Source of the DNA: Parcubacteria group bacterium
GTDB taxonomy: Bacteria > Pseudomonadota > Alphaproteobacteria > Caulobacterales > Caulobacteraceae
DNA length: 64,000 nt
Direction: 5' to 3'
Assembly: GCA_050260915.1 (NCBI GenBank)
Contig: JBLNCT010000114.1
Coordinates: 3,220-67,219, forward strand
In this document: one piece after another, positions 282-19,114 of the stretch
How the letters are laid out: each line of letters starts with the position of its first letter
How positions within the stretch are numbered: position 1 is the stretch's first letter
Position numbers and translations under genes: made by a program
The notes under the pieces: model-generated
What the model was told of the DNA's origin: nothing
The model's input: the letters and a program-made list of their open reading frames with translations, nothing else
The model's database searches: none

Positions 282-348
282 TCCGGCTTCGGTCCCCTTC
301 GAACCGGATTCACTGAGGCGGCGGGTAACCCCCGCCGCCTTTTTCTTT
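282..348 (+). ncRNA. Conserved TBDR 3' element copy 1: hairpin with GUCCCCUU loop plus intrinsic terminator (candidate 3'-UTR sRNA)
   Basis: tccggcttcg-gtcccctt-cgaaccgga, then aggcggcggg-taacc-cccgccgcct-ttttcttt. Homologous copies at 8388, 13724 and 18993. Confidence 0.55.
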
Positions 349-431
349 GCGAGACTCTGGAGACATGTAGAGGCGAGACATCGGCGCCTTTTCGGCCCTC
401 CAGCTATCCCGATTTATCCCAGCTCATCTCT

Positions 432-565
432 TCACCCGTCATCCTGGGCCTTGTGCCCAGGACCCAGAAACGCAGGCGGGCGGGAGCATGTCCCCGACCG
501 TCCCGCTTCGACCTGGAGCGCCGGTGCGTCTGGGTCCCAGGCACAAGGCCTGGGATGACGGGTGA
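432..565. repeat. Long palindromic intergenic repeat (REP/MITE-like)
   Basis: The ~35-nt arms tcacccgtcatcctgggccttgtgcccaggacccaga and tctgggtcccaggcacaaggcctgggatgacgggtga are near-perfect reverse complements. Confidence 0.8.
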
Positions 566-603
566 TTATCCGCTCTGCCTTTGCCACCCCCATACTGCGC
601 CCC

Positions 604-722
604 ATGACCGCCGCCGCCCGTATCCCCCTCCCCAAAGTTATCCCCCTCGCGCCTGCGTCCGTTCGCGTACGTTCGTGCGCGCAATACACCCGCCCCTCCG
701 CCCTCCCGCGCGCGAGCCGGAA
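604..722 (+). repeat. Duplicated ~110-bp intergenic segment, copy A (copy B at 19115-19222)
   Basis: Shares atgacc..tatcccc..cgtgcgc(g)caatac(a/g)cccgcccctccg..ccgcgcgcg with 19115-19222. Confidence 0.55.
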
Positions 723-766
723 CTCCCCGCTTCCTTGCGCCTTCCCACCCGCGCTAGGAGCGAGGG

Positions 767-2176
767 ATGAGCGCAGCGGCGGCGACCCATCAGGACGGCC
801 TCCCCATACCCCAGCGGTACTGGTCGGTGGCGGCGATCTGGCTGGCTATCACCATGGCCGTGCTGGACGGGGCCATCGCGAACGTGGCGCTGCCGACCAT
901 CGCCAACCAGCTGCATGCGACCGCCGCGGAGTCGATCTGGGTGGTCAATGCCTATCAGCTGGCGATCACCGTCTCGCTGCTGCCGCTGGCGGCGCTGGGC
1001 GACATCGTGGGCTACCGGCGGGTGTACCTGGTGGGGCTGGCGCTATTCACCCTGGCGTCCGGCGGCTGCGCCATGGCCCATACGCTGCATGAGCTGACCA
1101 TCGCGCGCGTGGTGCAGGGCGTCGGCGGCGCGGGGATCATGGCGATCAACGGGGCGCTGGTGCGCTTCACCTATCCCGCGCGGCTGCTGGGGCGGGGGAT
1201 AGGGCTGAATGCGGTGGTGGTGTCGCTGTCGGCGGCGCTGGGGCCGAGCATTGCGGCCGGCATCCTGAGCTTCGGCTCCTGGCCCTGGCTGTTCGCGGTG
1301 AATGTGCCCATCGGTGTGCTGACCATCCTGATCGGCTGGCGCTCGCTGCCCCTGACGCCCAGAGCCGACCGCCGGTTCGACTGGATCAGCGGCATTCTCA
1401 ATGCGCTGACCTTCGGCCTGCTGATTTACGGCGCCGAGAGCACCGCGCGGAACGCCGGTGGCACCGGCGTCTATGCGCTGGCCGGAGGCGCTGTGGCCGC
1501 CGTCCTGCTGCTGCGCCGCGAGCTTGGGATGAAGGCGCCGCTGGTTCCGCTCGACCTGATGCGGATCCCGATCTTCCGGCTGTCGGTCTTCACCTCCATC
1601 GTCTCGTTCGCGGCCCAGATGCTGGCCTTCGTGGCGCTGCCCTTCTTCTTCCAGAACATCCTGCACCGCAGTGTCGTGGAGACGGGCCTGCTGATGACCC
1701 CTTGGCCGCTGGCCGTCGGCGTCGCCGCGCCGATAGCAGGACGCCTGTCCGACCGTTTGCCAGTCGGGATTCTGGGGGCGGGGGGCCTGGCCGTCTTCGC
1801 CCTCGGCCTGGCGCTCCTCGCCCTGCTCCCGCCCAGCGCTGACAACGCGGAGGTCGTCTGGCGGATGATCGTCTGCGGCCTGGGCTTCGGCTTTTTCCAG
1901 TCGCCCAACAACCGCGCCATGATCTCCGCCGCCCCCCGCCACCGCAGCGGCGCGGCCGGCGGCATGCTGGCGACCGCGCGCCTGCTCGGCCAGACGACGG
2001 GCGCCACGACGATGGCCGTGCTCTTCCACCTGCTCGGCGTCGGCGCGACCCACACCGGCCTCGCCATAGCCTCCGGGCTCGCGGTCGGTGGAGCGCTGGT
2101 CAGCAGCCTGCGCCGCGGCCGCCGCGCCGTCGCCCCGCCCGAGCCGACAGGTCCGGAGGCCGCCGAACTGGGCTGA
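767..2176 (+). CDS. yebQ: MFS drug:H+ antiporter, DHA2 (14-TMS) family, YebQ-like
   Basis: DGLPIPQRY..MAVLDGAIANVALPTIA, FQSPNN and SGAAGGMLATARLLGQ motifs match E. coli YebQ as recalled; many hydrophobic helices. Confidence 0.85.
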   Translation: MSAAAATHQDGLPIPQRYWSVAAIWLAITMAVLDGAIANVALPTIANQLHATAAESIWVVNAYQLAITVSLLPLAALGDIVGYRRVYLVGLALFTLASGGCAMAHTLHELTIARVVQGVGGAGIMAINGALVRFTYPARLLGRGIGLNAVVVSLSAALGPSIAAGILSFGSWPWLFAVNVPIGVLTILIGWRSLPLTPRADRRFDWISGILNALTFGLLIYGAESTARNAGGTGVYALAGGAVAAVLLLRRELGMKAPLVPLDLMRIPIFRLSVFTSIVSFAAQMLAFVALPFFFQNILHRSVVETGLLMTPWPLAVGVAAPIAGRLSDRLPVGILGAGGLAVFALGLALLALLPPSADNAEVVWRMIVCGLGFGFFQSPNNRAMISAAPRHRSGAAGGMLATARLLGQTTGATTMAVLFHLLGVGATHTGLAIASGLAVGGALVSSLRRGRRAVAPPEPTGPEAAELG

Positions 2177-2198
2177 CTCGAAAAAAATCCTCGTCTCG

Positions 2199-2226
2199 GG
2201 GTGCATGATTTCCGCAAACTGCACTC
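2199..2226 (+). promoter_or_regulatory. Putative ECF-sigma-1 promoter (autoregulatory copy)
   Basis: gggtgcatgattt..c..aa...cactc is repeated with identical spacing at 3834-3861 upstream of TBDR1; preceded by an A-tract. Confidence 0.6.
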
Positions 2227-2281
2227 TGGCTGAGTAGGGGCGGAGTGTGTCGGCCCCCAAGCCAAAGGGGAGGGGGCGCGC

Positions 2282-2806
2282 GTGGCGCAGCCGCCGGACA
2301 GGGCGCAGGAGAAGGCTGCGGGTGTCGATCCCGCCGAGCTGCGCGTCTGGATGGAGCGCTATGGCCCGGGCCTTCGCCGCTATTTCGCCCGCCGCGTCCC
2401 GCCCGCCGAGGCGGAGGAGCTGGTGCAGGACGTCTTCCTCGCCATGCATGCGAGGAGCGCGGCCGAGCCCATCGACAACGTCCAGGGCTACCTCTTCCGC
2501 ATCGCCGCCAACCTGCTGTCGAAGCGCCACGAGGCGGGCGGCCACACGGGGCTGGACGAGGCGCCCGATATCGCCGAGGGCTTCTCCCCCGAGCGCATCC
2601 TCATCGGCCGGCAGGAGGCGAGCCGCGTGCTGATCGCCATCCGCAACCTGCCGCCCCGCACCCGCGAGGCCTTCGCCCTGCACCGGTTCGAGGACATGAC
2701 CTACGAGGCCATCGCGCGGCGCCTCGGCATTTCCGTCAGCGCTGTCTCGAAGCTGGTCGCCCGCGCGCTCGCCCACGTGACCGTCGAGCTGAGGCGCGCC
2801 CCATGA
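2282..2806 (+). CDS. ECF RNA polymerase sigma factor (FecI-like) #1
   Basis: AEELVQDVFL (region 2) and LPPRTREAFALHRFEDMTYEAIARRLGISVSAV (region 4). GTG start after a G-rich RBS. Confidence 0.93.
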   Translation: MAQPPDRAQEKAAGVDPAELRVWMERYGPGLRRYFARRVPPAEAEELVQDVFLAMHARSAAEPIDNVQGYLFRIAANLLSKRHEAGGHTGLDEAPDIAEGFSPERILIGRQEASRVLIAIRNLPPRTREAFALHRFEDMTYEAIARRLGISVSAVSKLVARALAHVTVELRRAP

Positions 2807-3843: not shown

Positions 3844-3861
3844 TTTTTCAGAACCCCACTC
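3834..3861 (+). promoter_or_regulatory. Putative ECF-sigma-1 promoter upstream of TBDR1
   Basis: Same motif and spacing as 2199-2226; overlaps the FecR1 stop codon. Confidence 0.6.
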
Positions 3862-3912
3862 ATGTAAATCAAGGGGAGTGTGTTGCTCCCCAAAGAATTG
3901 GGGGAGGTCCAA

Positions 3913-6900
3913 GTGACAAAGAGGGGAATGAAGCGGCACGCGCTGCTGCTGTGCGGGGCTGCGTCTATTGCGCTGGCCACGGCGGGATTTGCCGAAGCGG
4001 CTGAGGCCGCGCAGTTCGACATCCCGGCCCAGCCGCTGTCCACCGCGCTCGCCCAGTTCGGCGTGCAGAGCCAGCATGGCGTTTTTGCCGATTCCGCGCT
4101 TACCAGCACCCGGATGACCCAAGGCGTCTCCGGCGAGAAAGACGCGGAACTCGCCCTGAACGAACTCCTTGCCGGCACCGGGCTTTCATGGCGACGCGAC
4201 GGCCAGTCCTTCGTCATCGTGAGGGCCTCCGACCCCCAGTCCGGAAGCGCCGCGGGGGACGGCGCTGACGGAACCGTCGCCGCCCTGGTGGTCACCGCGC
4301 AAAAGCGCGAAGAAAATATCCAGGACGTGCCGATCGCTATGTCGGCGTTCACGCAGGAAGACCTGACGCGCAGCCAAGTCGCCGGCGGCCCCGACCTGAT
4401 GACCCAGGTCCCGAATTTCACCTTCACCAAGACCAACTTCACCGGCTATTCGATCCAGATTCGAGGGATCGGCACGCAGGCCATTTCGGCCACGACGGAT
4501 GCGGCCGTGGCCGTCGCGTTCAACAACACGCCCTTCATCCGTAACCGCTTCTTCGAGCAGGAATTCTACGACCTTCAGCGCGTCGAGGTGCTGCGCGGTC
4601 CGCAGGGGACGCTCTACGGCCGCAATGCGACGGCCGGCGTCGTGAACCTGATCTCGCAGAAGCCGAAGTTCAGCTACGAGGCCAGAGCCTCGCTGGACGT
4701 CAGCAACTACAGCAGCCACCGTCTCGAGGGCATGATCAACATGCCGTTGGTCGAGGACAAGGTCGCCCTGCGCATCGCCGGCGCCTGGACCAAGCGCGAC
4801 GGCTACGACACCAATCAGATCACGGGCAATCAGATCGACGGCCGCGATCTGTGGTCCACGCGTGTCTCGCTGCGTGTCGAGCCGACCGATTTCATCCACG
4901 CCAACCTGATCTGGGAACACTTCCAGGAAAACGACGACCGCCTGCGCTCGGGCAAGCAGCTCTGTAACACGCACGAAGTCACCGAGGTCGCGGGGTTTGA
5001 GACGACGCACTACCAGACCTTACCCGAAGTCGGGCAACCGCTGCTCGGCGCGGGTGTGCAGGCCTCGTTCAGCCAGGGCTGTCTTCCGGCCTCGCTTTAT
5101 GCGCCGGAGTCGTTCCAGACGCCGAATGGCCTGACGCTGCCCTACTATGCGCCGCTCAGCGCAATCGGCCTGCCGGTGTCCGGCGGCTCCTTCGATTTCG
5201 TGGACCCATACGTCAGCCGCACGCAGTCGCATGACCTGCGCACCATCGAGTCGACGGTCGACCCGGACTATCGCGCCAAGACCGACGTGGCCGAACTGCA
5301 GGTCAGCTTCGACCTTGCACACGACCTGACGCTGGCCTCGGAGACGGCCTACCTGGCGGACCGCGTCTTCTCGATGGAGGACTACAACCGCTTCAACACA
5401 GCGCCGGGCGTCTGGGAGAGGCCAGAGGATACCCCGCCATGGATCCACTATCGTGAAGGCGTGCTCCTGCACGGCGACCAAGGCGGCGTCTTCTGCGACC
5501 CGCAGGTCGGCTGCTCCGACCGCCTCGTCGCGGTCGACCTGTCGACCGCCAACTCGCGGCAGTTCAGCCAGGAATTCCGCCTGTCGTCGAATTATGCGGG
5601 CGCGTTCAACTTAAGCCTCGGCGCCAATTTCCTGCGCTACGACACCGATGAAAAATACTACGTTTTCATCAATAGCCTGACCCTGATTGCCGCCCTTTCG
5701 ACGAACGGCTTCGGGACGATGACGCCGTATCAGGCGGGCGTCAGCGATAACGCGGAGTGCATGAGGAACGGCGCCGAGCCGCCTGATCCCAACGCCATCG
5801 CCGATATCGGCTACTGCACCGCCATCGATCCGAACCCGATCGGCAGCCTGAACGACCTTGGCCACAACTACTTCCTGTCGAAGAACCCCTACAAGCTGAT
5901 CTCCTACGCGGTCTTCGGCGAAGCCTATTACGACCTCACGGCCAACCTGAAGCTGACCGCGGGCCTGCGCTGGACGGTGGACAAGAAGGAAGCGCCGAGC
6001 ATTCCGAGTTGGGTCGTCGCGTCGAAGTCCGTCGGCTATCCGGTGGAAGAGGTGATCCGGCAGACATGGCGGGAGCCCACCGGCCGCCTTACGCTGGACT
6101 GGAAGCCTGACCTGTCGTTCACCGACGACACGCTGGTCTACGCCTCCCTGGCTCACGGCTACAAGGCGGGCGGCGCCAACCCGCCGCCGACCGGACCGGT
6201 GGCCTATTGCAGCAACTGCGGGGAAAACCTCGACGTCTCGAACGCCAAGGTCTCCGCGTCGCACCCGAAGACCTTCGACCCGGAGTATGTCAACGCTCTG
6301 GAGATCGGATCGAAGAACACGCTGCTCGACGGCCGCCTGACCCTGAACGGCGATTTGTTCTACTATGACTATACCGGCTACCAGATTTCCCAGATCGTCG
6401 ACCGCTCGGCGGTAAACCTGAACATCGACGCCAGGGTCTGGGGCGCCGAGCTGGAAGCCGACTGGCGGCCCAGCGAGAACCTGCGGCTGGGCTTCAAGGG
6501 CGGATACGAGAACACCCGCATCGCCGACGGCATGAAAGCCATCGACCTGATGGACCGCACCGCCGGGCACGAGGGCTGGATCGTCGTCCGGCCGTTCCCG
6601 ACCTTCACCTCCAACTGCATCATGCCGGCCGAGCTCTTCGTCGGCACGGGCGTCCTCAACGGCGGCGGCGGCCCTGATCCGCACCTGATCAACCTGGGCG
6701 GCAAGGGCGGCGGCAATCCGGGGCCGTGCGAGATTGCCTATTCCCTGGGCCACGACCCGGTGACCGATGCGCCTTACGTCGACCTGACGACCGTGCCTGG
6801 CCCGGTGACGGAAGGTTACCTCAGCACACTGATCAATCACCCCGACTACAAGGGCTGGAACCCCGCCTGGGCGCCCAACAACGGCGAAGGCTTCGACAAG

Positions 6901-8385
6901 GACCTGTCCGGCAACGCCCTGCCGAACGCGCCGAAGTTCACGGCGACGGTGACGGCTGATTACACCGTGCCGCTGCCGCACGACTGGCTGGTCACGCTGC
7001 ACAGCGACTTCTACTACCAGTCGGAAGCCTGGACCCGGATCTTCAACACGCCGGGCTACGACAAGCTCAAGGCCTATACCAACGTGAACCTGGCCGCGAT
7101 CTTCTCCAACGAAGACGCCGGCTGGAGGGTCATGGCCTACGTCAAGAACGTCTTCGACCATGACGCGATAACCGGCGCCTTCCTGAACTCCGACGACACG
7201 GGCCTGACCACCAACGTGTTCCTGAACGAGCCCAGGCTCTTTGGCCTGCGGGTCACGAAGGAGTGGACGGGCCAGGGCTGGTGGACCGGCGCCAACCCCA
7301 ACCATACCGGCCCATATCCCTTCACCATCGAAGTCGGCGGTCAGGTCCAGCGGCAGGACGCTGCGTATTCGGTCGGCGCGCCAGGGTTCGCGAACGCGTT
7401 CTCGGACACTCTGGACATCTTCGCCGCCCCGCAGAACCGCGACCTCGATTGGGGTGACGGGCGGGAGCTGAAGCTGACCTACCGACCGAACGGCAGCCCC
7501 TGGAGCCTGTCGGCCGGCATGCGTTACGGCCGCACCAACACCGGAACGACGCGGCTCCATGCGCTGGAGAGCTCCGGTCCCGCGCAATGCGCCTTCCCGA
7601 CCACCGGGCCGTTCGCGTCGTTCGGCCGGCGGTTCTGCGATCCGACCTACGTCTACGGCAGTTATCCCGCCGGTTATTTCTACAGCAGCTTCGCGCTGCG
7701 GTCGGCGACCAACGTGGCGGACGCCTCGGCGCGGTCGCACGAGGAGCACTACCTCGGCGACTTCGAGGTCGGCCGGGACGTGGGGCTCGGCCTCCTGGGC
7801 CAAGGCCGCTCTTCGGTCGAGGGCGGGCTGCGCTATGCCGACTTCAAGTCCTCCACCGCGTCGTCGATGAGCGGCATCCCGAATTCGACGGTGCCGGACG
7901 CCTGGATCTTCAAGTACGCCAGCCTCGACCGTTACAGCGCCGCGATCCAGGCGGATCGTGAATTCAAGGGCGCCGGGCCAATGGTCGCCTGGGACGCGGG
8001 CAAGGCGCTGTGGAGCGATGGCGGCGCGGGGCACGTTGACCTCGACTGGCGCATCGGCGGCGGCGTGTTGTTCGGCAAACAACACACGACGATCGCCGGC
8101 GAGCAGACGGCCGCCCATTACTACGGCCGCTTTGTTTACGGCCCGCCGCGGCTAGGCGAGCCGGTGACGACGCCGATAAACATCGCGCGGGACCAGTCCG
8201 CGACCGTCCCCGTCCTAGACCTCTCCCTCGGCCTCTCCTACGAGATCGAGCGCATCAAGGTCGGCGCCGGCTACCGTTGGGAGCGCTACTACAACGTCCT
8301 CGACGCCGGCTACGCGGAACACAAGTCGTACGACCGCACCATCGACGGGCCGTACTTCAAGATCGCCGTCGGCTTCGGCGGCTGA
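3913..8385 (+). CDS. TonB-dependent receptor #1 with N-terminal STN signalling domain and an extra ~370-aa C-terminal beta-barrel-like domain
   Basis: Signal peptide, STN (FDIPAQPLSTAL), TonB box region VVTAQKREE, plug motif VEVLRGPQGTLYGRNATAG; barrel end homologous to the paralogs at ~7266. Start GTG 3913 chosen for RBS ggggagg (ORF track start 3880). Confidence 0.93.
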   Translation: MTKRGMKRHALLLCGAASIALATAGFAEAAEAAQFDIPAQPLSTALAQFGVQSQHGVFADSALTSTRMTQGVSGEKDAELALNELLAGTGLSWRRDGQSFVIVRASDPQSGSAAGDGADGTVAALVVTAQKREENIQDVPIAMSAFTQEDLTRSQVAGGPDLMTQVPNFTFTKTNFTGYSIQIRGIGTQAISATTDAAVAVAFNNTPFIRNRFFEQEFYDLQRVEVLRGPQGTLYGRNATAGVVNLISQKPKFSYEARASLDVSNYSSHRLEGMINMPLVEDKVALRIAGAWTKRDGYDTNQITGNQIDGRDLWSTRVSLRVEPTDFIHANLIWEHFQENDDRLRSGKQLCNTHEVTEVAGFETTHYQTLPEVGQPLLGAGVQASFSQGCLPASLYAPESFQTPNGLTLPYYAPLSAIGLPVSGGSFDFVDPYVSRTQSHDLRTIESTVDPDYRAKTDVAELQVSFDLAHDLTLASETAYLADRVFSMEDYNRFNTAPGVWERPEDTPPWIHYREGVLLHGDQGGVFCDPQVGCSDRLVAVDLSTANSRQFSQEFRLSSNYAGAFNLSLGANFLRYDTDEKYYVFINSLTLIAALSTNGFGTMTPYQAGVSDNAECMRNGAEPPDPNAIADIGYCTAIDPNPIGSLNDLGHNYFLSKNPYKLISYAVFGEAYYDLTANLKLTAGLRWTVDKKEAPSIPSWVVASKSVGYPVEEVIRQTWREPTGRLTLDWKPDLSFTDDTLVYASLAHGYKAGGANPPPTGPVAYCSNCGENLDVSNAKVSASHPKTFDPEYVNALEIGSKNTLLDGRLTLNGDLFYYDYTGYQISQIVDRSAVNLNIDARVWGAELEADWRPSENLRLGFKGGYENTRIADGMKAIDLMDRTAGHEGWIVVRPFPTFTSNCIMPAELFVGTGVLNGGGGPDPHLINLGGKGGGNPGPCEIAYSLGHDPVTDAPYVDLTTVPGPVTEGYLSTLINHPDYKGWNPAWAPNNGEGFDKDLSGNALPNAPKFTATVTADYTVPLPHDWLVTLHSDFYYQSEAWTRIFNTPGYDKLKAYTNVNLAAIFSNEDAGWRVMAYVKNVFDHDAITGAFLNSDDTGLTTNVFLNEPRLFGLRVTKEWTGQGWWTGANPNHTGPYPFTIEVGGQVQRQDAAYSVGAPGFANAFSDTLDIFAAPQNRDLDWGDGRELKLTYRPNGSPWSLSAGMRYGRTNTGTTRLHALESSGPAQCAFPTTGPFASFGRRFCDPTYVYGSYPAGYFYSSFALRSATNVADASARSHEEHYLGDFEVGRDVGLGLLGQGRSSVEGGLRYADFKSSTASSMSGIPNSTVPDAWIFKYASLDRYSAAIQADREFKGAGPMVAWDAGKALWSDGGAGHVDLDWRIGGGVLFGKQHTTIAGEQTAAHYYGRFVYGPPRLGEPVTTPINIARDQSATVPVLDLSLGLSYEIERIKVGAGYRWERYYNVLDAGYAEHKSYDRTIDGPYFKIAVGFGG

Positions 8386-8387
8386 CA

Positions 8388-8457
8388 CCCCGGTCCCCTC
8401 TGAACCGGAACAACCTGAGAGGCGGCGTCTCCCCCGGGCGCCGCCTCGAATTTTTTT
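8388..8457 (+). ncRNA. Conserved TBDR 3' element copy 2 (degenerate) plus terminator
   Basis: ccggtcccctctgaaccgga, then gaggcggcg-tctcccccggg-cgccgcctc-gaattttttt. Confidence 0.45.
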
Positions 8458-8465
8458 CACCCCCC

Positions 8466-8499
8466 CCGACCTGTAGGGTTCGCGCCCTCTTGCGTCAGT
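8466..8499 (+). promoter_or_regulatory. Putative ECF-sigma-2 promoter (autoregulatory copy)
   Basis: CCGACCTGTAGGG..CGCGCC..TTGCGTCnGT, repeated with the same 34-nt length at 10069-10102. Confidence 0.65.
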
Positions 8500-8541
8500 A
8501 CAAACGGTGGAGTGTCATTTCCGCCGTCGAAGGGGGCCCCA

Positions 8542-9078
8542 GTGGCGCAGCCGCCGCATCCGTCCAGCATGGCGCAAGCGGTCATCCGCGAGGAGGACCT
8601 GCGCGCCTGGATGGTCGAGTACGGGCCCGCGCTGCGCCGGTACTTCGAGCGCCGCGTCGGCGCCGCCGAGGCGGAGGACCTGGTGCAGGACGTCTTCCTC
8701 CACCTCCAGGCCCGCGCCGTCGGCGGGGCGGTGGACAACGTGGAGCGCTACCTCTTCCGCATCGCCGGCAACGTGCTGGTCAGCCGCCACCGGCACCGCA
8801 ACGCCCGCGGCTTTCCCCTCACCGATGCGCTGGACGAGGCGCTCGAGCCCGTCGAAACCATCGCCGCCGAGCGCGTGCTGATCGGCAAGCAGGACGTCGC
8901 CCGCGTCATCGCCGCCATGCAGGCCCTGCCGCCCCGCACGCGCGAGGCCTTCATCTTCCACCGCTTCAACGAGATGACCTATCCCGCCATCGCGCGCCGC
9001 ATGGGCATCTCGGTCAGCGCCGTCGGCCAGCTGATCGCGCGTGCGCTGGAAAAGCTGACCGAGGAGACCTGCGCATGA
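8542..9078 (+). CDS. ECF sigma factor (FecI-like) #2
   Basis: AEDLVQDVFL and LPPRTREAFIFHRFNEMTYPAIARRMGISVSAV. GTG 8542 gives the same MAQPP start as sigma #1 (ORF track 8512). Confidence 0.93.
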   Translation: MAQPPHPSSMAQAVIREEDLRAWMVEYGPALRRYFERRVGAAEAEDLVQDVFLHLQARAVGGAVDNVERYLFRIAGNVLVSRHRHRNARGFPLTDALDEALEPVETIAAERVLIGKQDVARVIAAMQALPPRTREAFIFHRFNEMTYPAIARRMGISVSAVGQLIARALEKLTEETCA

Positions 9079-10052
9079 GCCGGGCCGCCGCATCGGACTG
9101 GTTCGCGCGGCGCCGCTCCGGGGCGCTGACGCCGGACGCGCAGGCGGAGCTCGACGCCTGGCTCGCCGACCCCGACAACCGCGCCGCCTTCGCCGACGTC
9201 GAGGCCACCTGGGCGCTGGTCGACGCCGCCCGCGACGACCCCGCCATGCTGGCGATGCGCGAGGCCGCCGAGCGCGCCCATCCGCCCGCGCGGCGCCGAT
9301 GGGTCGTCGGAGGCGCCATCGCCGCCAGCCTGGCCGCCGCCGCCGTCGCCTGGCCGCTCGCGACCTCGCCTGACCTCGCCGCCCGCCTGCCGATCCCCGG
9401 CGCCGACACCCGCACGGTCAGCACCGGCGCGGGCCAGATGACCACCATGACCCTGCCCGACGGCACGCTGGTCACGCTCGACGCCGACACCGTGCTGAAG
9501 ATGCGCGACACGCCCCGCCAGCGGCTGGTCACCATGGAACGCGGCCGCGCCTTCTTCCGCGTGGCCAGGGATGCGCGCCGCCCCTTCAACCTGATCGCGG
9601 GGGGCAAGAAGGTCACCGCGACCGGCACGGCGTTCGACGTCAGCCTCGCCAACAACTGCTTCGAGCTGGTGCTGGTCGAGGGCAAGGTGAAGGTCGCCGA
9701 CGCCTCGGTCTTCCGCCGCCCACAGGCCGCCGAGCTGGCCCCCGGCTCGCGCCTGGTCGTGGCGACGGAAGGGCGCTGGGCCGTCACCCGCGTGAACGTG
9801 GAAAAGGAAACCGGCTGGCTGAAGGGCTGGCTCACCTACGACCGCGCGCCGATGGGCAAGATCGCGGCCGACCTCAACCGCTATTCCGAAAAGCAGATCG
9901 TCATCGCCGACCCGCACGTCGCGGCCACCCCGATGATGGGCGCCTTCAAACCCGGCGACATCGACAGCTTCGTGCGCGCGGCGCGTTACTACGGCTACGC
10001 GCGCGTGACCTCCGAGTCCGGCGGAGAGGTGGTGCTCGCCGCCCCGGAATAG
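9075..10052 (+). CDS. FecR-family anti-sigma #2
   Basis: ATGA overlap with sigma #2; ASDWF, LPDGTLVTLDADT and DLNRYS motifs. Confidence 0.92.
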   Translation: MSRAAASDWFARRRSGALTPDAQAELDAWLADPDNRAAFADVEATWALVDAARDDPAMLAMREAAERAHPPARRRWVVGGAIAASLAAAAVAWPLATSPDLAARLPIPGADTRTVSTGAGQMTTMTLPDGTLVTLDADTVLKMRDTPRQRLVTMERGRAFFRVARDARRPFNLIAGGKKVTATGTAFDVSLANNCFELVLVEGKVKVADASVFRRPQAAELAPGSRLVVATEGRWAVTRVNVEKETGWLKGWLTYDRAPMGKIAADLNRYSEKQIVIADPHVAATPMMGAFKPGDIDSFVRAARYYGYARVTSESGGEVVLAAPE

Positions 10053-10068
10053 AATTTTTTCAGCGGCG

Positions 10069-10102
10069 CCGACCTGTAGGGCGCCGCGCCGATTGCGTCT
10101 GT
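10069..10102 (+). promoter_or_regulatory. Putative ECF-sigma-2 promoter upstream of TBDR2
   Basis: Matches 8466-8499; preceded by the T-tract gaatttttt. Confidence 0.65.
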
Positions 10103-10148
10103 CGCTTCAGGGGGCTTCGCGCTCCCGGGAAAAAGGGGGAGCGAAACG

Positions 10149-13100
10149 ATGCACAAATCCGACCTGAAGCGCCTGCTGTGCGGCGCCGCCGCGATGGCGC
10201 TGGCCTTGCCGATGGCCGCCCACGCCGAAGTCGCCAACTTCAACATCGCGGCCCAGCCGCTGAGCTCCGCGCTGAAGGAATTCAGCATTCAGAGCCAGTA
10301 TAGCCTCGTCGCGCCGCCCGACGTGATCGCCGCGAAAACGACCGCCGGAGTGTCGGAGTCCGCCGAGCCCGAAATCGCGCTGGCCGCGCTCCTGCAAGGC
10401 ACGGGCCTCAGCTACCGCCGCGAAGGAAACACCTTCCTCATCGTGGGAGCCGACGCCCCCCAGTCCGGCAGCGCCGCGGGGGACGGCGCCGGGACCGTTG
10501 AAGCCCTGATCGTCACGGCTCAGAAAAAGGAAGAGGCGATCCAGGACGTGCCGATTGCTATCAGCGCGTTCACGGAGAAGAGCCTGGAGGAGCAGAAGAT
10601 CGAGGGCGGGTTTGACCTGCTGAAGGCGATCCCGAACGTTACGTTCTCGAAGAACAACTTCACGTCCTACAACTTCAGCATCCGCGGCATCGGCACCAAG
10701 GCCGTAAGCGCCACGACCGACCCGGGCGTGGCCGTCAGCTTCAACAACGTCGCCCTGATCCAGAACCGCCTGTTCGAGCAGGAGTACTTCGACGTCGAAC
10801 GCGTAGAAGTCCTGCGCGGGCCGCAGGGCACCCTCTATGGCCGTAACGCCACGGCGGGTGTCGTAAACCTGATCTCAGCCAAGCCGGATATGGATGAATT
10901 CAAAGGCTGGCTGAAGGGCGAGGTTGGCAACTACCACACCAAGCGTCTCTCGGCGATGGTCAACGTCCCTCTCATCGAGGACAAGCTCGCTATCCGCTTT
11001 GCGGGCGCTCTGACGGAGCGGCAGGGGTATGACTACAACACCGGCACCCACCACGCGGTGAACGGCCGTGATCTTTGGTCAGGCCGGATCACGATTGGCT
11101 TCGATCCGACGGAAAGCCTCCACGCCGACTTGGTCTGGGAGCGCTTCAACGAAGACGACAATCGTTCGCGCACCGGCAAGCAGCTCTGCCACCGTGATGA
11201 TGGCCGGGAGTACGTGGGAACTACGCCCACCGCTTCTGTGGACGTGTTTGGACAAGATTTCACCGTACTCCGGCAGGCGCTGTTCTCCCAAGGCTGCAAG
11301 GCCGGTTCTCTGTACGAGAACGCGGCCTTTGGTACGCCGAACGGACTTGCGTTGCCACTCGTCTGGGGCCTCCTGATGACCGGTAGCAATGGCTTCTACT
11401 CACTGAACTACCCGTATTCTGGCTATACGGGACCGCAAACCCTTATCGCTCTCCAGGACCCCTATGGTGGGATGATGCAATCTCGCGACCTGCGCATGAT
11501 AAATTCCTTCCGGGATCCGGTTTATCGGGCTAAGGCCGATATAGTCGAGCTCAATATAAACTGGTCTCCTCGCGATGCCATCACGATAACATCTCAGATG
11601 GCATACAATCGAGATTCTACGTATTCATTTCAAGATTATAACCGGTTTAACACGACTCCAATCTTTGTTGATACGTCAAATTTTTCAGTTTTCGCGTATA
11701 ATGTCAATCCGACCGCATACCGGACGCTGGCTCCCGGCGGCGTCTTTTGCGACCCGCAACTCGGTTGCTCAAATACCTTCGCAGCGTTTGATATTGCTCA
11801 GGCGAAGGGTGAGCAGTTCAGCCAGGAGGTCCGAATCCAATCTTCTTTCGGGGGTGCGTGGGACTTCAGCGCCGGGGCTAACTACACCCAATACAGGACG
11901 AGCGTAGATTATTACGTGATGTCCAATTTGATGACGGCAATGGCGATGGTAAAGCCGTTCAATTTGCCTGAGGAATATCCGGGCGCGGTCGCCGGTTGGG
12001 ATTACTGTTACGGGACTCCCATGTTCTCCGGCGGAGTCAAATATCCGTTAGGTGCGGCAGGTAGTGGCTGTCCCTACATCGATCCTAATCCGGTCGAAAG
12101 CCTCAATGGTGAGGGGCACAACTATTTTCGCTCCAAGAATCCTTATAAGTTGAAGTCGGGAGCGGTGTTTGGCGAGCTGTACTGGCGGCTCAGGGATGAC
12201 CTGAAGCTGACAGCGGGGGGGAGGTACACTGACGACCGGAAAGTGTTTATTCCCGTTCCAAGTCAGTTGCTGCTTGCCGAGGGCTACATCGCTGGGGGTG
12301 ACGTGAATCGCGGTTACCCAGAGCTAGAGCCCATAAAGCAGCGCTGGGGGGAATGGACCGGGCGAATAGGGGTGGACTGGAAGCCGAGACTGTCGTGGAG
12401 CGATCAGACGCTCATCTATGCCTTCTACTCGCATGGTTACAAAGCCGGCGGCGCTAATCCGCCGCAGCCAGGGTTCAGTAAACAAACGTTCCTGGACGTG
12501 CAGGGCTTCACTAAAGAGCAGCAAATCTCTCTGCTCGACTTCTACCCGGATGGGCCGGTACGCGATTACGTTTCACGCTTCGTCTTCCATCCAATCTTTG
12601 AACTCACCGGCGTGGACTATGGCCCCACATTCAAGCCTGAGTTTGTCAACGCGTATGAACTCGGAACGAAGAACACATTGTTCGGTGGCGGGCTCGCCGT
12701 AAACGCGGATACGTTCTTCTATGATTACAAAGATTACCAAGTCTCTCAGATCAAAAATAGAACAGCCGTGAATGAAAATTTTGATGCAAAGGTATGGGGT
12801 GTTGAGTTTGAAGCGCTGTTCGCGCCATCGAGAGATTTAGCGATAAACGCCAGCCTCGGCTACCTCGGCACTAGGATAGCAGACGGTGAGACGTCGATTG
12901 ATATCATGAATCGAACACAAGGAAATCCAGACTTGGTCGTTGCTAAGCCGTGGCCGCAATTGCCGTCAAACTGCGTTGTGCCGGTTTGGGTTGCGGAAAA
13001 CTGGCTTCAAAATCATGCCCAGCTTGGCCAATTCTTTGATCTCTGCGGCGGCGCTAACGGCTTTGTGGCGGCATTCCCATCGGCGTTTGTGATGGACACG

Positions 13101-13556
13101 CACACCTCGAGTCTCTATGATCCGAACTACTACAACGGCGAGAATGGTACATTCAATATAAACGGCGGTGCTGGGATTCGCGCCGACCTGGGAGGCAATC
13201 AACTGCCGAATGCGCCGCATTGGACGATGAACATCGGCGCCCAGTACGGCCGCGACATCCTCGAAGGCTCCTGGCGGGCGACGGTGCGGGCCGACGCGTA
13301 CTGGCAGTCGCAGTCCTGGGCGCGGGTCTACAACGACGACCCGTACGACAAGCTCCACGGCTGGTACAACGTGAACCTGTCCGTCTGGCTGGAGCGTCCC
13401 GAAGACGATCTGAAGATCGAGTTCTACGCCAAGAACCTGCTCGACAAGACGCCGATCACCGACGCCTTCCTGAACTCCGACGATAGCGGCCTGACCACCA
13501 ACGTCTTCGTGCTCGACCCGCGCCTGATCGGGCTCAGCATCAAGAAGGGGTTCTAG
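10149..13556 (+). CDS. STN-containing TonB-dependent receptor #2
   Basis: Signal peptide, STN, IVTAQKKEE, VEVLRGPQGTLYGRNATAG; C-terminal Phe (KKGF). Confidence 0.95.
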   Translation: MHKSDLKRLLCGAAAMALALPMAAHAEVANFNIAAQPLSSALKEFSIQSQYSLVAPPDVIAAKTTAGVSESAEPEIALAALLQGTGLSYRREGNTFLIVGADAPQSGSAAGDGAGTVEALIVTAQKKEEAIQDVPIAISAFTEKSLEEQKIEGGFDLLKAIPNVTFSKNNFTSYNFSIRGIGTKAVSATTDPGVAVSFNNVALIQNRLFEQEYFDVERVEVLRGPQGTLYGRNATAGVVNLISAKPDMDEFKGWLKGEVGNYHTKRLSAMVNVPLIEDKLAIRFAGALTERQGYDYNTGTHHAVNGRDLWSGRITIGFDPTESLHADLVWERFNEDDNRSRTGKQLCHRDDGREYVGTTPTASVDVFGQDFTVLRQALFSQGCKAGSLYENAAFGTPNGLALPLVWGLLMTGSNGFYSLNYPYSGYTGPQTLIALQDPYGGMMQSRDLRMINSFRDPVYRAKADIVELNINWSPRDAITITSQMAYNRDSTYSFQDYNRFNTTPIFVDTSNFSVFAYNVNPTAYRTLAPGGVFCDPQLGCSNTFAAFDIAQAKGEQFSQEVRIQSSFGGAWDFSAGANYTQYRTSVDYYVMSNLMTAMAMVKPFNLPEEYPGAVAGWDYCYGTPMFSGGVKYPLGAAGSGCPYIDPNPVESLNGEGHNYFRSKNPYKLKSGAVFGELYWRLRDDLKLTAGGRYTDDRKVFIPVPSQLLLAEGYIAGGDVNRGYPELEPIKQRWGEWTGRIGVDWKPRLSWSDQTLIYAFYSHGYKAGGANPPQPGFSKQTFLDVQGFTKEQQISLLDFYPDGPVRDYVSRFVFHPIFELTGVDYGPTFKPEFVNAYELGTKNTLFGGGLAVNADTFFYDYKDYQVSQIKNRTAVNENFDAKVWGVEFEALFAPSRDLAINASLGYLGTRIADGETSIDIMNRTQGNPDLVVAKPWPQLPSNCVVPVWVAENWLQNHAQLGQFFDLCGGANGFVAAFPSAFVMDTHTSSLYDPNYYNGENGTFNINGGAGIRADLGGNQLPNAPHWTMNIGAQYGRDILEGSWRATVRADAYWQSQSWARVYNDDPYDKLHGWYNVNLSVWLERPEDDLKIEFYAKNLLDKTPITDAFLNSDDSGLTTNVFVLDPRLIGLSIKKGF

Positions 13557-13562
13557 GCGCAA

Positions 13563-13718
13563 CCCTCCTCCCTCGAGGGGAGGAGGGCAGGGTGGAGGGT
13601 GTGGCCGCTGAGTTTGGCGAAGAAGCACTGTTGGGCGCAGAGCCAAACAGCGCCAGCCTGTCAGCTCACTGCACTCACCCCTATCCCCGGCCCTTCCCCC
13701 CTCGAGGGGGAAGGGAGA
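13563..13718. repeat. Intergenic repeat with paired CCCTCCnCCCTCGAGGGG hairpins (resembles Caulobacter CIR-type repeats)
   Basis: Terminal palindromes ccctcctccctcgaggggaggaggg and cccttcccccctcgagggggaaggg. Confidence 0.65.
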
Positions 13719-13723
13719 GTTCC

Positions 13724-13791
13724 CCGGCTTCGGTCCCCTTCGAACCGGATCACTGCAAGGCGGTCGCCCCCACCGGCGGCCGCCTTTTCTT
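13724..13791 (+). ncRNA. Conserved TBDR 3' element copy 3 plus terminator
   Basis: ccggcttcg-gtcccctt-cgaaccgga, then aaggcggtcgcc-cccacc-ggcggccgcctt-ttctt. Confidence 0.55.
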
Positions 13792-13833
13792 CGCCCGCTT
13801 GACACCTTCGCCAACCCGCCGACGCTTACGCGT

Positions 13834-15341: not shown

Positions 15342-15456
15342 CGGCCGTGAAAATTTTTTTGCCGGAGTGCTGAGCATCCGCGTCCCCGTCCCGTCCTCCA
15401 CTACGAGAGCCCGCGTTGCAGCGGGCCTGGCGGCGCCCGGGGGAGGGGCTTCTACG

Positions 15457-18400
15457 ATGACGAATACTCGGAAGATCTTGATGGGCGCCTCGGCGCTGGC
15501 CGGCGCGCTGTCGATCGCGCTGACGGCGACGGCTGCGAGCGCCGAGACAAGGCCGATCGCCTTCGACCTGCCGGCCCAGCCGCTGGGCGAATCCTTACGC
15601 GATTTCTACCGGGAGTCCGGCGAGCAGATCGTCTTCTCCGAAGACCTCGTCGCCGGCCGCACCAGCCCGGCGCTGAAGGGCAGCTACACCGCAGACCAGG
15701 CGCTCGCCATGCTGCTCGAGGGCACCAACCTCAGCGCGCGACGCACCAGCACGGGAGTGGTGATGATCGAAGCCCCCCAGTCCGGCAGCGCCGCGGGGGA
15801 CGGCGCTGACGCGGGGACGGTTGCTGCGCTCGTCGTGACGGCGCAGAAGCGTGAGGAGAACATCCAGGATGTGCCGATCGCGATCTCGGCCTTCACGGAG
15901 AAGTCGCTCGAAGAACAGAAGATCGAAGGCGGCTTCGACCTCCTGAAGGCGATCCCGAACGTCACCTTCTCGAAGAACAACTTCACCAGCTACAACTTTA
16001 GCATTCGGGGCGTAGGCACCAAGGCGATCTCCGCCACCACCGATCCGGGCGTGGCGGTGTCGTTCAACAACATCGCCCTGATCCAAAACCGCCTGTTCGA
16101 GCAGGAGTACTTCGACGTCGAACGCGTCGAGGTGCTGCGCGGGCCGCAGGGCACGCTCTATGGCCGCAACGCGACCGCCGGTGTGATCAACGTCATCTCG
16201 GCCAAGCCGAACCTGCAGGACTTCTCCGGCTGGATCAAAGGCGAGGTGGGCAACTACCACGCCAAGCGCCTCTCAGCGATGGTCAACGTCCCCCTCGTCC
16301 AGGACAAGCTCGCCATCCGCCTTGCAGGGTCACTCACCGACCGGCAGGGCTACGACTACAACGAAGGCACCCACCGCGCGGTGAACGGTCGCGACCTGTG
16401 GTCAGGCCGCGTGACCGTCGCGTTCAACCCCACGGACCGGTTCCGCTCCAACCTCATTTGGGAGCGCTTCAACGAAGACGACAACCGCTCGCGGACCGGG
16501 AAACAGCTGTGTCATCGTGACCCGGGACCGACGATGATCGGGAACACGGCCGTCGCCCAGCCTGACGAGTCCGGCGGCTACTTCGATGCCCCCCTTCGCC
16601 AGGCGTTGTTCTCGCAGGGTTGTTTGCCCGGTTCGTTGTACGACGATGCGGCCTTCGGAACGCCGAACGGCCTGTCTCTGCCTTTCATCTTCGGAATGCA
16701 CCAGGCCCAGCAGATTATACAGGTTGGCCCATACAATCCGGAAACACACGTTTTCGAGGACTTCCTGCAGCTACGTGATCCGTACGGTGGCATGATGCAG
16801 TCGCGGGACCTCAGAGTCATCGACTCGATCATGGATCCGGTCTATCGCGCCAAAGCGGACGTCGTTGAGCTGAATCTCGAATTTGATGTCACAGACGCCC
16901 TGAAATTGTTCTCCCAGGCAGCGTACGACCGCGACACAGTTTATTCTTCGCAGGATTATAACCGGTTCAATACTGGGGAAATATTCCGGGATTCCTCAAT
17001 TCTATTGGGAGGCTACGCGAGTCTCTCACCCGGAGGAGTGTTTTGCGATCCGCAACTGGGCTGCTCCAAGTCTATGGTCGGGTACGATATTTCGAAGGCC
17101 AAATCAGAGCAATTTTCTGAAGAGATACGCCTTCAGTCAAGCTTCACAGGCCCGGTGAACTTCAGCGCCGGCGCCAACTACACGCGCTTCAGAACCTTGG
17201 TGGACTACTATGTCTTTAATAACATGATAACGGCCATGGCGATGTTGCCGCCGTTCATGGCCTGGGATCCACCGTCCCAGCCGGTCGCCTTTGATACCTG
17301 TTCCATGTTTATAGATCTTACCGGTACGATCTTCCCCGCCGGAGATCCCCGTTCCGCGTGTCCTTACATCGATCCCAACCCGCTCGAAAGCATCAACGGC
17401 GAGGGCCACAACTACTTCCGCAGCAAGAATCCCTACCGGCTCCTGTCCACCGCGGCATTTGGCGAACTGTACTGGCAGTTTTCCGATGCTCTGAAGGTGA
17501 CGGCGGGGCTCAGGTACACCGATGACCGCAAGACGTTTACGCCGGTGCCGAGCCAGGTGCTGCTTGCACCGAGCTTTTTTGCCGGCGGCACTGTCGCGCG
17601 CGGGTATCCGGCGCTGCCCGATATAAAGCAGCATTGGGGCGAGTGGACCGGGCGGCTTGGCGTGGACTGGAAACCGGAACTCCCCTTCACGGACCAAACT
17701 ATGGTCTATGCCTTCTACTCCCGGGGCTACAAGGGCGGCGGAGCGAACCCGCCCACGCCAGGCTATGGCGACAAATCGCTTGTCGACTACCTCGGAGATT
17801 TCCTCAGCTTTATCGTACCGCAACAGGACATCGAGCGGTTCACGCGTCCGATCTTGCAGCTTCCGGCTGACTACGAGCCGACCTTCAAACCCGAGTTCGT
17901 CAACGCCTTCGAAACGGGCGTCAAAAACACGCTGTTGGGCGGCGCGCTTGTGTTGAATGGCGACGCGTTCTTCTATGATTATAAGGACTACCAAGTTTCC
18001 CAAATAAAGCTGCGGACGGCCGTCAACGAAAACTTCGATGCGAAAGTCTGGGGGCTAGAGTTCGAATCGCTGTTCAGTCCAAGCCGCAATTTTCACATCA
18101 ATGCGAACCTTGGCTATCTGAACACCCGGATTGGAAATGGCCAGCGTTCCATTAACATCATGGATCGAACGCAGGGCAATCCGAACTATGTGCTTGCGAA
18201 GCCGTGGCCGTTGCTCCCCGCGAACTGTATCGTGCCCGAGCACGTTGCGGAGGAGTTCGCAGGATTCTTCACACGGCCGGATGGCTCCACTTACCGAAAG
18301 TACACTATTAACCAGGCGACTTTCCTTTGCGGGGGGAGCAATGGCTTTCTCGAGGCGCTAGGCATCACCAATGGCGTCATCGATACCCGTACCGGAGCCC

Positions 18401-18849
18401 TCTACGACCCGTACGCCCGTGACGCCAATGGCAATCTGCTCTATCCGGAAATCAACGGCGGGGCCGGCCTCTACGAGGACGTGTCGGGCAACCACCTGCC
18501 CAACTCGCCGCACTGGACGATGAACATCGGCGCGCAATATAGCCACGATATCCTCGATGGCTCCTGGCGAGCGACGGTCCGCGGCGACGCTTACTGGCAG
18601 TCGCAGTCCTGGGCTCGGGTCTACAACGATAACCCATACGACAAGCTGCACGGCTGGTATAACGTGAACCTGTCAGTGTGGCTGGAGCGGCCTGAGGACG
18701 ACCTTAAGATCGAGTTCTACGCCAAGAACCTGCTCGACAAGACGCCGATCACCGACGCCTTCCTGAATTCCGACGACAGCGCGCTGACGACGAACGTCTT
18801 CACGCTCGATCCCCGACTGATCGGGCTGTCTATCCGCAAGGGCTTTTAG
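15457..18849 (+). CDS. STN-containing TonB-dependent receptor #3
   Basis: Start reassigned to ATG 15457 (RBS gggaggg, signal peptide MTNTRKILMG); STN, plug motif, terminal Phe (RKGF). Confidence 0.95.
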   Translation: MTNTRKILMGASALAGALSIALTATAASAETRPIAFDLPAQPLGESLRDFYRESGEQIVFSEDLVAGRTSPALKGSYTADQALAMLLEGTNLSARRTSTGVVMIEAPQSGSAAGDGADAGTVAALVVTAQKREENIQDVPIAISAFTEKSLEEQKIEGGFDLLKAIPNVTFSKNNFTSYNFSIRGVGTKAISATTDPGVAVSFNNIALIQNRLFEQEYFDVERVEVLRGPQGTLYGRNATAGVINVISAKPNLQDFSGWIKGEVGNYHAKRLSAMVNVPLVQDKLAIRLAGSLTDRQGYDYNEGTHRAVNGRDLWSGRVTVAFNPTDRFRSNLIWERFNEDDNRSRTGKQLCHRDPGPTMIGNTAVAQPDESGGYFDAPLRQALFSQGCLPGSLYDDAAFGTPNGLSLPFIFGMHQAQQIIQVGPYNPETHVFEDFLQLRDPYGGMMQSRDLRVIDSIMDPVYRAKADVVELNLEFDVTDALKLFSQAAYDRDTVYSSQDYNRFNTGEIFRDSSILLGGYASLSPGGVFCDPQLGCSKSMVGYDISKAKSEQFSEEIRLQSSFTGPVNFSAGANYTRFRTLVDYYVFNNMITAMAMLPPFMAWDPPSQPVAFDTCSMFIDLTGTIFPAGDPRSACPYIDPNPLESINGEGHNYFRSKNPYRLLSTAAFGELYWQFSDALKVTAGLRYTDDRKTFTPVPSQVLLAPSFFAGGTVARGYPALPDIKQHWGEWTGRLGVDWKPELPFTDQTMVYAFYSRGYKGGGANPPTPGYGDKSLVDYLGDFLSFIVPQQDIERFTRPILQLPADYEPTFKPEFVNAFETGVKNTLLGGALVLNGDAFFYDYKDYQVSQIKLRTAVNENFDAKVWGLEFESLFSPSRNFHINANLGYLNTRIGNGQRSINIMDRTQGNPNYVLAKPWPLLPANCIVPEHVAEEFAGFFTRPDGSTYRKYTINQATFLCGGSNGFLEALGITNGVIDTRTGALYDPYARDANGNLLYPEINGGAGLYEDVSGNHLPNSPHWTMNIGAQYSHDILDGSWRATVRGDAYWQSQSWARVYNDNPYDKLHGWYNVNLSVWLERPEDDLKIEFYAKNLLDKTPITDAFLNSDDSALTTNVFTLDPRLIGLSIRKGF

Positions 18850-18862
18850 GCAAACCCACAGT

Positions 18863-18980
18863 CGTCATCCCACGGTCGGCTGAAAGCCGATCCGGGGGAC
18901 CCAAGCGGCGCACCTTATCTTGCACTGCAGCTTGGGTCCCCCGGACGTCACCCGCTTCGCAGGTTCGCCGGGGGATGACG
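18863..18980. repeat. Palindromic intergenic repeat (CGTCATCCC ... GGGATGACG)
   Basis: Terminal inverted repeats plus internal ccgggggaccca / tgggtcccccgg arms. Confidence 0.7.
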
Positions 18981-18992
18981 CGGCTTTGATTG

Positions 18993-19060
18993 TCCGGTTT
19001 CGGTCCCCTTCGAAACACGGATCAACTGGGCGGCCGCTCCCCAGCGGCCGCCTTTTTCTT
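18993..19060 (+). ncRNA. Conserved TBDR 3' element copy 4 plus terminator
   Basis: tccg-gtttcg-gtcccctt-cgaaac-a-cgga (stem changed but still paired), then ggcggccgct-cccc-agcggccgcc-tttttctt. Confidence 0.55.
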
Positions 19061-19114
19061 CGTTGGGGCCGGTGAGGTTGTCCCCGTCGTCCGCGGCAGC
19101 CCTACACTGGGGCG

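Follow-up and report, generated by a model that had tools for sequence, protein, structure and literature searches.

A UCCCCU-loop hairpin and terminator repeated at the operon ends of an expanded TonB-dependent transducer family in Caulobacteraceae

C-rich loops resembling anti-Shine-Dalgarno sequences in 3' untranslated regions (3' UTRs), as well as small RNAs (sRNAs) derived from the 3' ends of transcripts, are a kind of element that is already known. The 3' UTR of icaR in Staphylococcus aureus contains a UCCCC-type motif complementary to the Shine-Dalgarno (SD) sequence of the same mRNA, the action of which depends on RNase III and was proven experimentally. In Vibrio cholerae the RNAs OppZ and CarZ are cut from operon 3' ends and pair with a ribosome binding site (RBS) inside the same operon, giving negative feedback. 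Here we analyse an element of this general kind, a hairpin with a UCCCCU loop followed by a terminator, which stands after each of four TonB-dependent receptor genes in a stretch of 64,000 nucleotides (nt) of a Caulobacteraceae genome (assembly GCA_050260915.1, contig JBLNCT010000114.1, positions 3,220 to 67,219; hereafter the window) and recurs many times in the same genome. Unlike icaR, which is a Gram-positive, single-gene and proven case, this element is a putative regulator; unlike OppZ and CarZ, which have a private seed in each operon, it has one seed common to all copies, so that feedback would spill over to all paralogs.

Two other systems are described in Caulobacter crescentus. AbnZ, which does not depend on Hfq, arises by processing at the 3' end of the acrAB-nodT operon and uses C-rich apical loops against G-tracts located before the start codon; it is a single-copy RNA of three hairpins, with loops of 7 and 16 consecutive C, and its target is tamAB (PMC11724286). 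It comes from the same bacterial family as our element; both are located behind the final gene, one for an outer-membrane protein, of an envelope operon whose terminator they share. However, in the present case there is one C-loop hairpin plus a terminator, only four C in the hexaloop, about 48 copies, and the candidate targets belong to the host gene family itself; no relation to AbnZ was found in sequence or in Rfam. The siblings SisA-D (alphaR8) combine an anti-SD motif with a terminator and repress mRNAs of TonB-dependent receptors at the 5' UTR; they are four in number, each a free-standing gene that has a promoter of its own, is unattached to receptor genes and carries a single-stranded UUUCCUCCCU downstream of a weak hairpin; the sponge CrfA counteracts them with a G/A-rich stem-loop (PMC12559287), which is conceptually like the G-loop hairpin described below. 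Our element lacks the 10-mer UUUCCUCCCU and is not free-standing. A gathering-threshold scan of the whole window against Rfam 15 gave no match. When one copy was scanned by E-value, the best match was RF02241 Xoo2, an sRNA of Xanthomonadaceae (24.8 bits against a gathering threshold of 45); membership was rejected, as the similarity covers AACCGGA..CACUG..GGCGG plus the terminator and leaves the C-loop hairpin unaligned. A full-text literature search returned no description of such an element. No 3'-UTR regulator that exists in so many copies and has a matching partner hairpin inside the gene is known to us. We believe that three features are new: how many copies there are, their strict linkage to a single expanded family of receptors, and the matched G-loop inside the gene.

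Structure, copy number and place in the operons

The element is an intrinsic (Rho-independent) terminator preceded by a hairpin that presents an invariant UCCCCU hexaloop. A preliminary description of the window, made without database searches, had located four such elements on the forward strand, and both the covariance model R1 and folding confirmed their positions (Table 1). The consensus of the first hairpin (hairpin 1) is UCCGG-C-UUCGG[UCCCCU]YYGAA-CCGGA, that is an outer and an inner stem of 5 bp each with a bulged C between them, and the hexaloop, which is closed by G-C and G.U pairs and replaces the loop GUCCCCUU proposed earlier. It is followed by a linker of 7-10 nt (AUCAACUG-like) and by a GGCGGC...GCCGCC terminator, whose stems of 9-12 bp precede U4-U8 in all four copies of the window and in the alignment of 40 copies. 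Folding of the window copies gave the hairpin plus the terminator at -31 to -37 kcal/mol (z-scores from -3.3 to -6.6), none of 200 shuffles being as good, and a terminator scan recovered three copies out of four. Two subtypes of the hairpin (..GGUCCCCUUCGAA / ..GGUCCCCUCUGAA; ...CCCCUUCGAA / ...CCCCUCUGAA) are related by an exchange of UC for CU with both pairs retained. The copy near position 8388, previously taken for one with a degenerate loop, belongs to the CU subtype usual after long class-B receptors and has an intact loop; it is its 5' arm that is eroded, being overlapped by the stop codon TGA (8383-8385). In copy 4 the inner stem is indeed longer and the bulge is moved to the 3' side.

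The four copies proved to be a small part of a family which counts about 48 members in this genome and extends to at least two more species. A 16-mer search of the 2.99-Mb genome registered 39 sites and none for the reversed control pattern. The covariance search that had been proposed for the four copies was performed with a model built from 40 own-genome copies (R1, alignment A2); it gave 53 matches at E<=0.01, approximately 48 of them above 35 bits. About 45 of these 48 loops are intact. The 40 copies found by regular expression and 8 further covariance-model matches were examined in detail, and all of them are co-oriented with the preceding gene, starting 0-166 nt past the stop codon of a receptor of the family or of an autotransporter gene behind it. 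In position past the stop codon, in sharing the terminator of the mRNA and in having a seed conserved far above the remaining 3' UTR, the element resembles 3'-UTR-derived sRNAs.

A typical cassette consists of an extracytoplasmic function (ECF) sigma factor gene, a FecR anti-sigma gene, a gene for a TonB-dependent transducer and sometimes an extra beta-barrel gene, and cassettes often form head-to-tail arrays with a period of 5-8 kb. The genome has 61 genes with a Plug domain, about 50 of which belong to the element-bearing family. Twelve other TonB receptors of the genome were checked; none has the C-loop hairpin, and most end in plain GC hairpins. Receptors of class A (about 1100-1180 amino acids (aa); STN, Plug and barrel; C-terminus PRLIGLSI[KR]K[GED]F) are followed by the UC subtype, and those of class B (about 1450-1560 aa; built like class A, with a Legionella_OMP-like barrel added in frame; C-terminus GPYFKIAVGFGG) by the CU subtype. 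The gene before copy 2 is a single open reading frame (ORF) of 1501 aa (3880-8385), encoding a TonB-dependent transducer fused to such a barrel (extra domain, 7267-8382). The additional C-terminal domain of class B comprises about 370 aa (PF05150, 7.5e-14) and is appended to the usual C-terminus of the receptor; GPYFKIAVGFGG is the terminal sequence of at least 14 paralogs with lengths of 1450-1565 aa. Judging from domain matches, the class-B receptor would contain two barrels fused in one protein. An autotransporter gene (PF03797) is present in some operons between the receptor and the element (contig C115, about 8870-11270; C83:146; C121:5324), and wherever it is present the element comes after the autotransporter, not after the receptor. 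Since the element follows three different last genes or domains, it marks the operon end, whatever the last beta-barrel gene is. Behind one non-family receptor (contig C70, about 47555-47633, on the minus strand) stand a minimal hairpin, GGUUC-UUC-GAACC, then a linker rich in A and a terminator; the arrangement, which is the same apart from the lacking C-loop, may be ancestral.

The space between the stop codon and the hairpin is variable. The class-A receptor upstream of copy 1 has a stop codon ending at 162, 120 nt before the element, and the stop codon before copy 3 is at 13554-13556. According to the preliminary description palindromic repeats precede the element in three cases. The 167-nt insert of copy 3 (13557-13723) belongs to a dispersed repeat, for which blastn gave about 76 matches in the genome; the insert of copy 4 (143 nt, 18850-18992), also a dispersed repeat, has about 20 matches, and the 119-nt insert of copy 1 (163-281) has no further copy. 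Two families of dispersed palindromic repeats, of about 160 and about 143 nt, have repeatedly entered the very site between the stop codon of a receptor and the hairpin, and distances of 141-145 and 166 nt recur in many copies. The insertions 5' of the hairpin left it undamaged in many copies, which implies that its function does not depend on the distance to the stop codon.

Conservation within the genome and beyond it

Paralogous receptors of the family share 57% of protein sequence within class A, 59% within class B and 44% between the classes, while the DNA of hairpin 1 remains 78-93% identical and ungapped. The stretch CGGUCCCCU is invariant in 40 copies out of 40, whereas the linker and the interior of the terminator vary. 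In the terminator stem, 21 and 15 double-sided compensatory changes were counted at two pairs, and its loop varies as well. The fraction of paired cells amounts to 93.4% in the own-genome alignment and to 96.8% in the cross-species one, the latter having been fitted to the covariance model and being biased towards the structure by this; double-sided changes occur in 10 pairs, none of 500 shuffles matched the observed values, and slid controls were far lower. Because the paralogs diverged while hairpin 1 stayed nearly invariant and the adjoining terminator covaried freely, the alignments indicate that the hairpin was retained by selection at the RNA level and not by recent duplication. The earlier notion of a sibling family with paired, covarying stems, an invariant C-rich loop and the terminator of the mRNA in common was upheld.

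The element is transcribed within the receptor mRNA. In contigs of rhizosphere metatranscriptomes, which are assembled and carry no information on transcript ends, the receptor stop codon is joined to the hairpin.

The receptor family itself expanded here: tblastn gave about 55 matches, against 1-4 in each of 18 congeners with a match, and the approximately 50 cassettes occupy roughly a tenth of the 3-Mb genome. Receptors of the family in congeners (1-4 per genome) are about 950-1000 aa long and are followed by ordinary terminators without the C-loop; the covariance model found in 24 congeners no element, only terminator-level matches. When the congeners and 400 genomes of the family were searched with this model, matches of 31-36 bits corresponding to the terminator were obtained, plus one 48-bit copy in genome G341, although the 400-genome run scored no more than about 12 candidates in each genome and may have missed weak copies. 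GTDB representative genomes, scanned by pattern and then with the covariance model, yielded two further carriers: a Caulobacteraceae metagenome-assembled genome (MAG), SMAG_U1969, with 27 copies, and a MAG of an uncultured Caulobacter sp. (G428) with 26. In the former the element mostly stands behind class-B receptors, in the latter behind autotransporter genes that follow class-A receptors. The flanks are 78-86% (SMAG_U1969) and 70-76% (uncultured Caulobacter sp.) identical to those in our genome, and hairpin 1 is almost letter-perfect.

These data bear on two explanations that assign no RNA function to the element, both of which fit them poorly. It might be a passive relic, a terminator-proximal hairpin inherited at each duplication and not yet decayed, as the location of all copies behind one paralog family would allow. 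However, at 44-57% protein identity neutral 3' sequence should be unalignable, and the linker, terminator loop and flanks did diverge when hairpin 1 did not; together with conservation of the hairpin across species with 70-76% flank identity, this makes the relic the least probable of all explanations considered, and we disfavour it. Only slightly better is a role at the DNA level, as an anchor for recombination or gene conversion, or as a mobile repeat, which together with the conserved linker block described below would bracket an exchangeable plug-plus-barrel part. Two sharply conserved nucleotide blocks do flank the variable receptor core, cassettes stand in tandem arrays, and the family has expanded to about 55 matches here against 1-4 members in congeners. 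Such a role is nevertheless very improbable: strand and position after the last gene are strict, compensatory changes retain RNA-type pairs including G.U, the adjoining terminator is not homogenised as it would be in conversion tracts, there are no terminal repeats and no copy above 39 bits away from these operon ends, and the true mobile repeats of this genome are dispersed in both orientations. A mobile element of the repetitive extragenic palindrome (REP) or miniature inverted-repeat (MITE) type and an integron-attC-like element were rejected on the same grounds, the strict orientation and single operon-type context differing from the repeats with 76 and 20 dispersed matches. Mimicry of a tRNA or of helix 45 of 16S rRNA (GGAUCAC after the hairpin) was also dropped, because the linker varies between copies.

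The almost complete invariance of the stem sequence in three species, and not just of its pairing, is typical of sequence-specific recognition and admits one more explanation. Hairpin 1 could serve, with no pairing to G-runs, as a binding site for an RNA-binding protein or RNase, or could reinforce the terminator and shield the next sigma gene of an array from run-on of transcription or decay. Isolation should matter for head-to-tail cassettes repeated every 5-8 kb, a strong terminator is always part of the module, and the pairing signal considered in the next section is not specific to UCCCCU. On the other hand, a terminator does not need an invariant loop, and hairpin 1 is absent from the 12 other receptors checked and from congener orthologs; no candidate protein is linked to the loci, and this view does not account for the co-occurrence of the C-loop with two G-run motifs specific to the family. 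We regard this possibility as rather unlikely, yet as the strongest competitor of the explanation proposed at the end.

Candidate pairing partners in the receptor mRNAs

G-runs able to face the C-loop were registered at two places of the receptor genes. The first is an intragenic block, CCCCAGTCCGGMAGCGCCGCGGGGGACGGCGC, which 45 of about 50 family genes carry 309-333 nt from their start, within the linker that joins the STN domain to the TonB box. Its fold is AGCGCCG[CGGGGGA]CGGCGCU with a loop complementary to UCCCCU, and the predicted C-loop/G-loop duplex has an energy of -12.6 kcal/mol. With a nucleotide identity of 0.979 this block is the strongest conservation peak of the 3.4-kb gene, and its codon identity among identical residues (0.96 versus 0.75-0.88 for the best protein motifs) indicates constraint on nucleotides; it adjoins the poorly conserved N-terminal region. 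In two paralogs the stem of the G-loop was rebuilt and the G-run in the loop was kept. The 32-nt block encodes the peptide PQSGSAAGDGA.

The second place is the SD region, where GGGGGA(G) was found in 36 of 47 family receptors and only in 16 of 708 control genes with unambiguous starts (2.3%). Predicted duplexes of the loop 7-mer with the translation initiation regions (TIRs) of receptors reach -10.4 kcal/mol against a background of -6.0 kcal/mol (p 3e-19), and those with the start regions of sigma genes are modestly stronger than the background. The preliminary description regarded the seed as complementary to RBSs of the cassettes in general and pointed to 12 contiguous pairs between GGUCCCCUUCGA and the RBS tcgaagggggcc of the ECF-sigma-2 gene (8527-8538). 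The match holds, including its single G.U pair, with -22.8 kcal/mol for the duplex, and complementarity to RBSs of the cassettes stands; but the sigma-2 site turned out to be a one-off among the 44 sigma leaders, which are diverse, the receptor SD and the intragenic G-loop are the sites of greatest strength and generality, and the enrichment is not specific to UCCCCU.

In predicted folds of receptor leaders an upstream CUCCC stretch is paired to the SD in 21 cases out of 43, and a G-run further upstream was seen by eye in several of them. The shared layout of leaders is a G-run, a CUCCC anti-SD, an A-rich loop and the GGGGGAG SD. Based on these folds one can assume that the leader could be an SD-sequestering switch. 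Palindromes CTTCCCCC-aga-GGGGGAAG occur directly 5' of many start codons genome-wide, for instance on contigs C24, C77, C98 and C102, and by its sequence their 3' half could be an SD-like element locked in a hairpin.

Table 1. Window coordinates of the 3' elements and of their candidate partners (bit scores are those of covariance model R1)
Feature	Position	Strand	Details
Copy 1, 3' module	282-348	+	hairpin 282-308; UCCCCU loop 293-298; linker; terminator stem 315-341; U-tract to 348; 79.4 bits; fold -36.2 kcal/mol, z -5.05
Copy 2, CU subtype	8383-8457 (R1 model 8383-8454)	+	residual stem CCGG 8390-8393 / 8405-8408; UCCCCU loop 8394-8399; terminator 8419-8447; U-tract 8451-8457; 50.1 bits; z -3.31
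Copy 3	13723-13793	+	hairpin 13724-13749; loop 13734-13739; terminator about 13757-13786; U-tract 13785-13791; 73.6 bits; z -4.58
Copy 4	18993-19061	+	hairpin 18993-19021; loop 19004-19009; terminator 19028-19053; U-tract 19054-19060; 69.3 bits; z -6.60
Candidate partner, G-loop hairpin block in receptor-1 ORF	4233-4266	+	
Candidate partner, G-loop hairpin block in receptor-2 ORF	10457-10490	+	
Candidate partner, G-loop hairpin block in receptor-3 ORF	15774-15807	+	
Receptor-1 leader	3872-3915	+	AGGGGA 3872-3877; GCUCCCC 3885-3891; SD GGGGGAGG 3900-3907; probable GTG start 3913
Receptor-2 leader	10110-10151	+	G-run 10110-10114; anti-SD GCUCCC 10121-10126; SD GGGGGAG 10135-10141; ATG 10149
Receptor-3 SD and start	15439-15459	+	SD GGGGGAGGGG 15439-15448; ATG 15457
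ECF-sigma-2 RBS and start	8527-8544	+	RBS tcgaagggggcc 8527-8538; probable GTG start 8542

Possible function of the element

Among the explanations considered, we rank first, tentatively, the formation of a stable 3' fragment that pairs with receptor leaders, because of the architecture of hairpin, linker and terminator and because of the close precedent of AbnZ; this is plausible but unproven. SisA-D show, in addition, that TonB receptor mRNAs are under the control of anti-SD RNAs in this bacterial family. Most likely the last 65-70 nt would outlast decay of the mRNA as a stable fragment, as in the case of AbnZ. Its C-loop would then base-pair with G-runs of the same family of mRNAs, namely the GGGGGA(G) SD, the upstream G-run of the leader and the GGGGGA loop of the coding-region linker. 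In this way each induced cassette may damp translation of its own receptor and of about 50 sister receptors, producing feedback and cross-talk.

Several observations weigh against the stable 3' fragment. The metatranscriptome contigs testify to co-transcription only. The seed has just 6-7 nt, and G-runs are common at start sites of this GC-rich genome. Other C-rich sequences used as controls (the anti-SD of 16S rRNA and a CCUCC loop) favour receptor TIRs equally, so that the match may merely reflect a strong G-rich SD. GGGGGA is also found 4-12 nt before a possible start in 61 other genes, many of these sites belonging to C5/G5 palindromes of dispersed repeats. No covariation could be counted between the loop and its partners, the loops being invariant or wobble-compatible (GGGGGA in this genome; GGGGGG in genome G427, via G.U), and the sole loop variant, UCCGCU on contig C28, is uncompensated in its own gene. 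A class-A receptor of G428 has the SD GGGGGAGG and no linker G-loop, and its operon still ends in the 3' element. Finally, one shared trans-acting RNA would not predict near-perfect conservation of each copy, which points to a per-gene, that is cis, role.

Two narrower proposals were discarded. The linker hairpin as an obligatory kissing partner is ruled out by the G428 receptor. A wider trans regulon was rejected as well, since the 61 other genes share no theme of envelope biogenesis and many of their sites fall into the palindromes of dispersed repeats.

If the role is exercised in cis only, the C-loop stays in the mRNA, where it pairs with the SD of its own transcript or kisses the linker G-loop 3-4 kb upstream, and so sets translation or decay of that transcript. 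Conservation of individual copies, with nearly all loops intact, fits selection on each gene, and both candidate partners are available in the same transcript, the SD in 36 of 47 genes and the G-loop in 45 of 50; the G-loop hairpin is under nucleotide-level constraint, and in G427 the number of linker G-loop blocks is the same as that of 3' elements, 27. Nevertheless, a translating ribosome would melt an intragenic hairpin, the G428 receptor does without it, C-loop and G-loop do not covary, and long-range pairing between 5' and 3' regions is, to our knowledge, rarely documented in Gram-negative bacteria. We consider a purely cis-acting switch unlikely, slightly more so than protein binding or insulation.

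The stable fragment and the loop-loop contact can also be combined in a more speculative picture, to which we give no more credit than to the cis switch. Under such family-wide RNA addressing, built from the C-loop, the intragenic G-loop hairpin and the G-run leader, each induced cassette would release or present its UCCCCU loop for the GGGGGA sites of about 50 sister mRNAs and hold the others down, or else a loop-loop kiss would close its own mRNA of 3-4 kb.

Cassettes of TonB-dependent transducers are the main way in which many environmental bacteria sense and import scarce substrates, which raises the question of how a cell with dozens of them avoids overload of the outer membrane. In the genome analysed here such cassettes are tagged with three RNA motifs: the G-run leader, the intragenic G-loop and the 3' C-loop. 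Even if the role of hairpin 1 is limited to protein binding or to insulation of adjacent cassettes, it represents an undescribed structured RNA motif that merits an Rfam entry. If the C-loop pairs with the G-runs, its copies would make up an unusually large set of sibling 3'-UTR regulators and offer a simple model of how members of one gene family regulate each other. Family-wide addressing, if true, would mean that switching on one uptake cassette restrains the others post-transcriptionally, which would amount to a priority rule among receptors.

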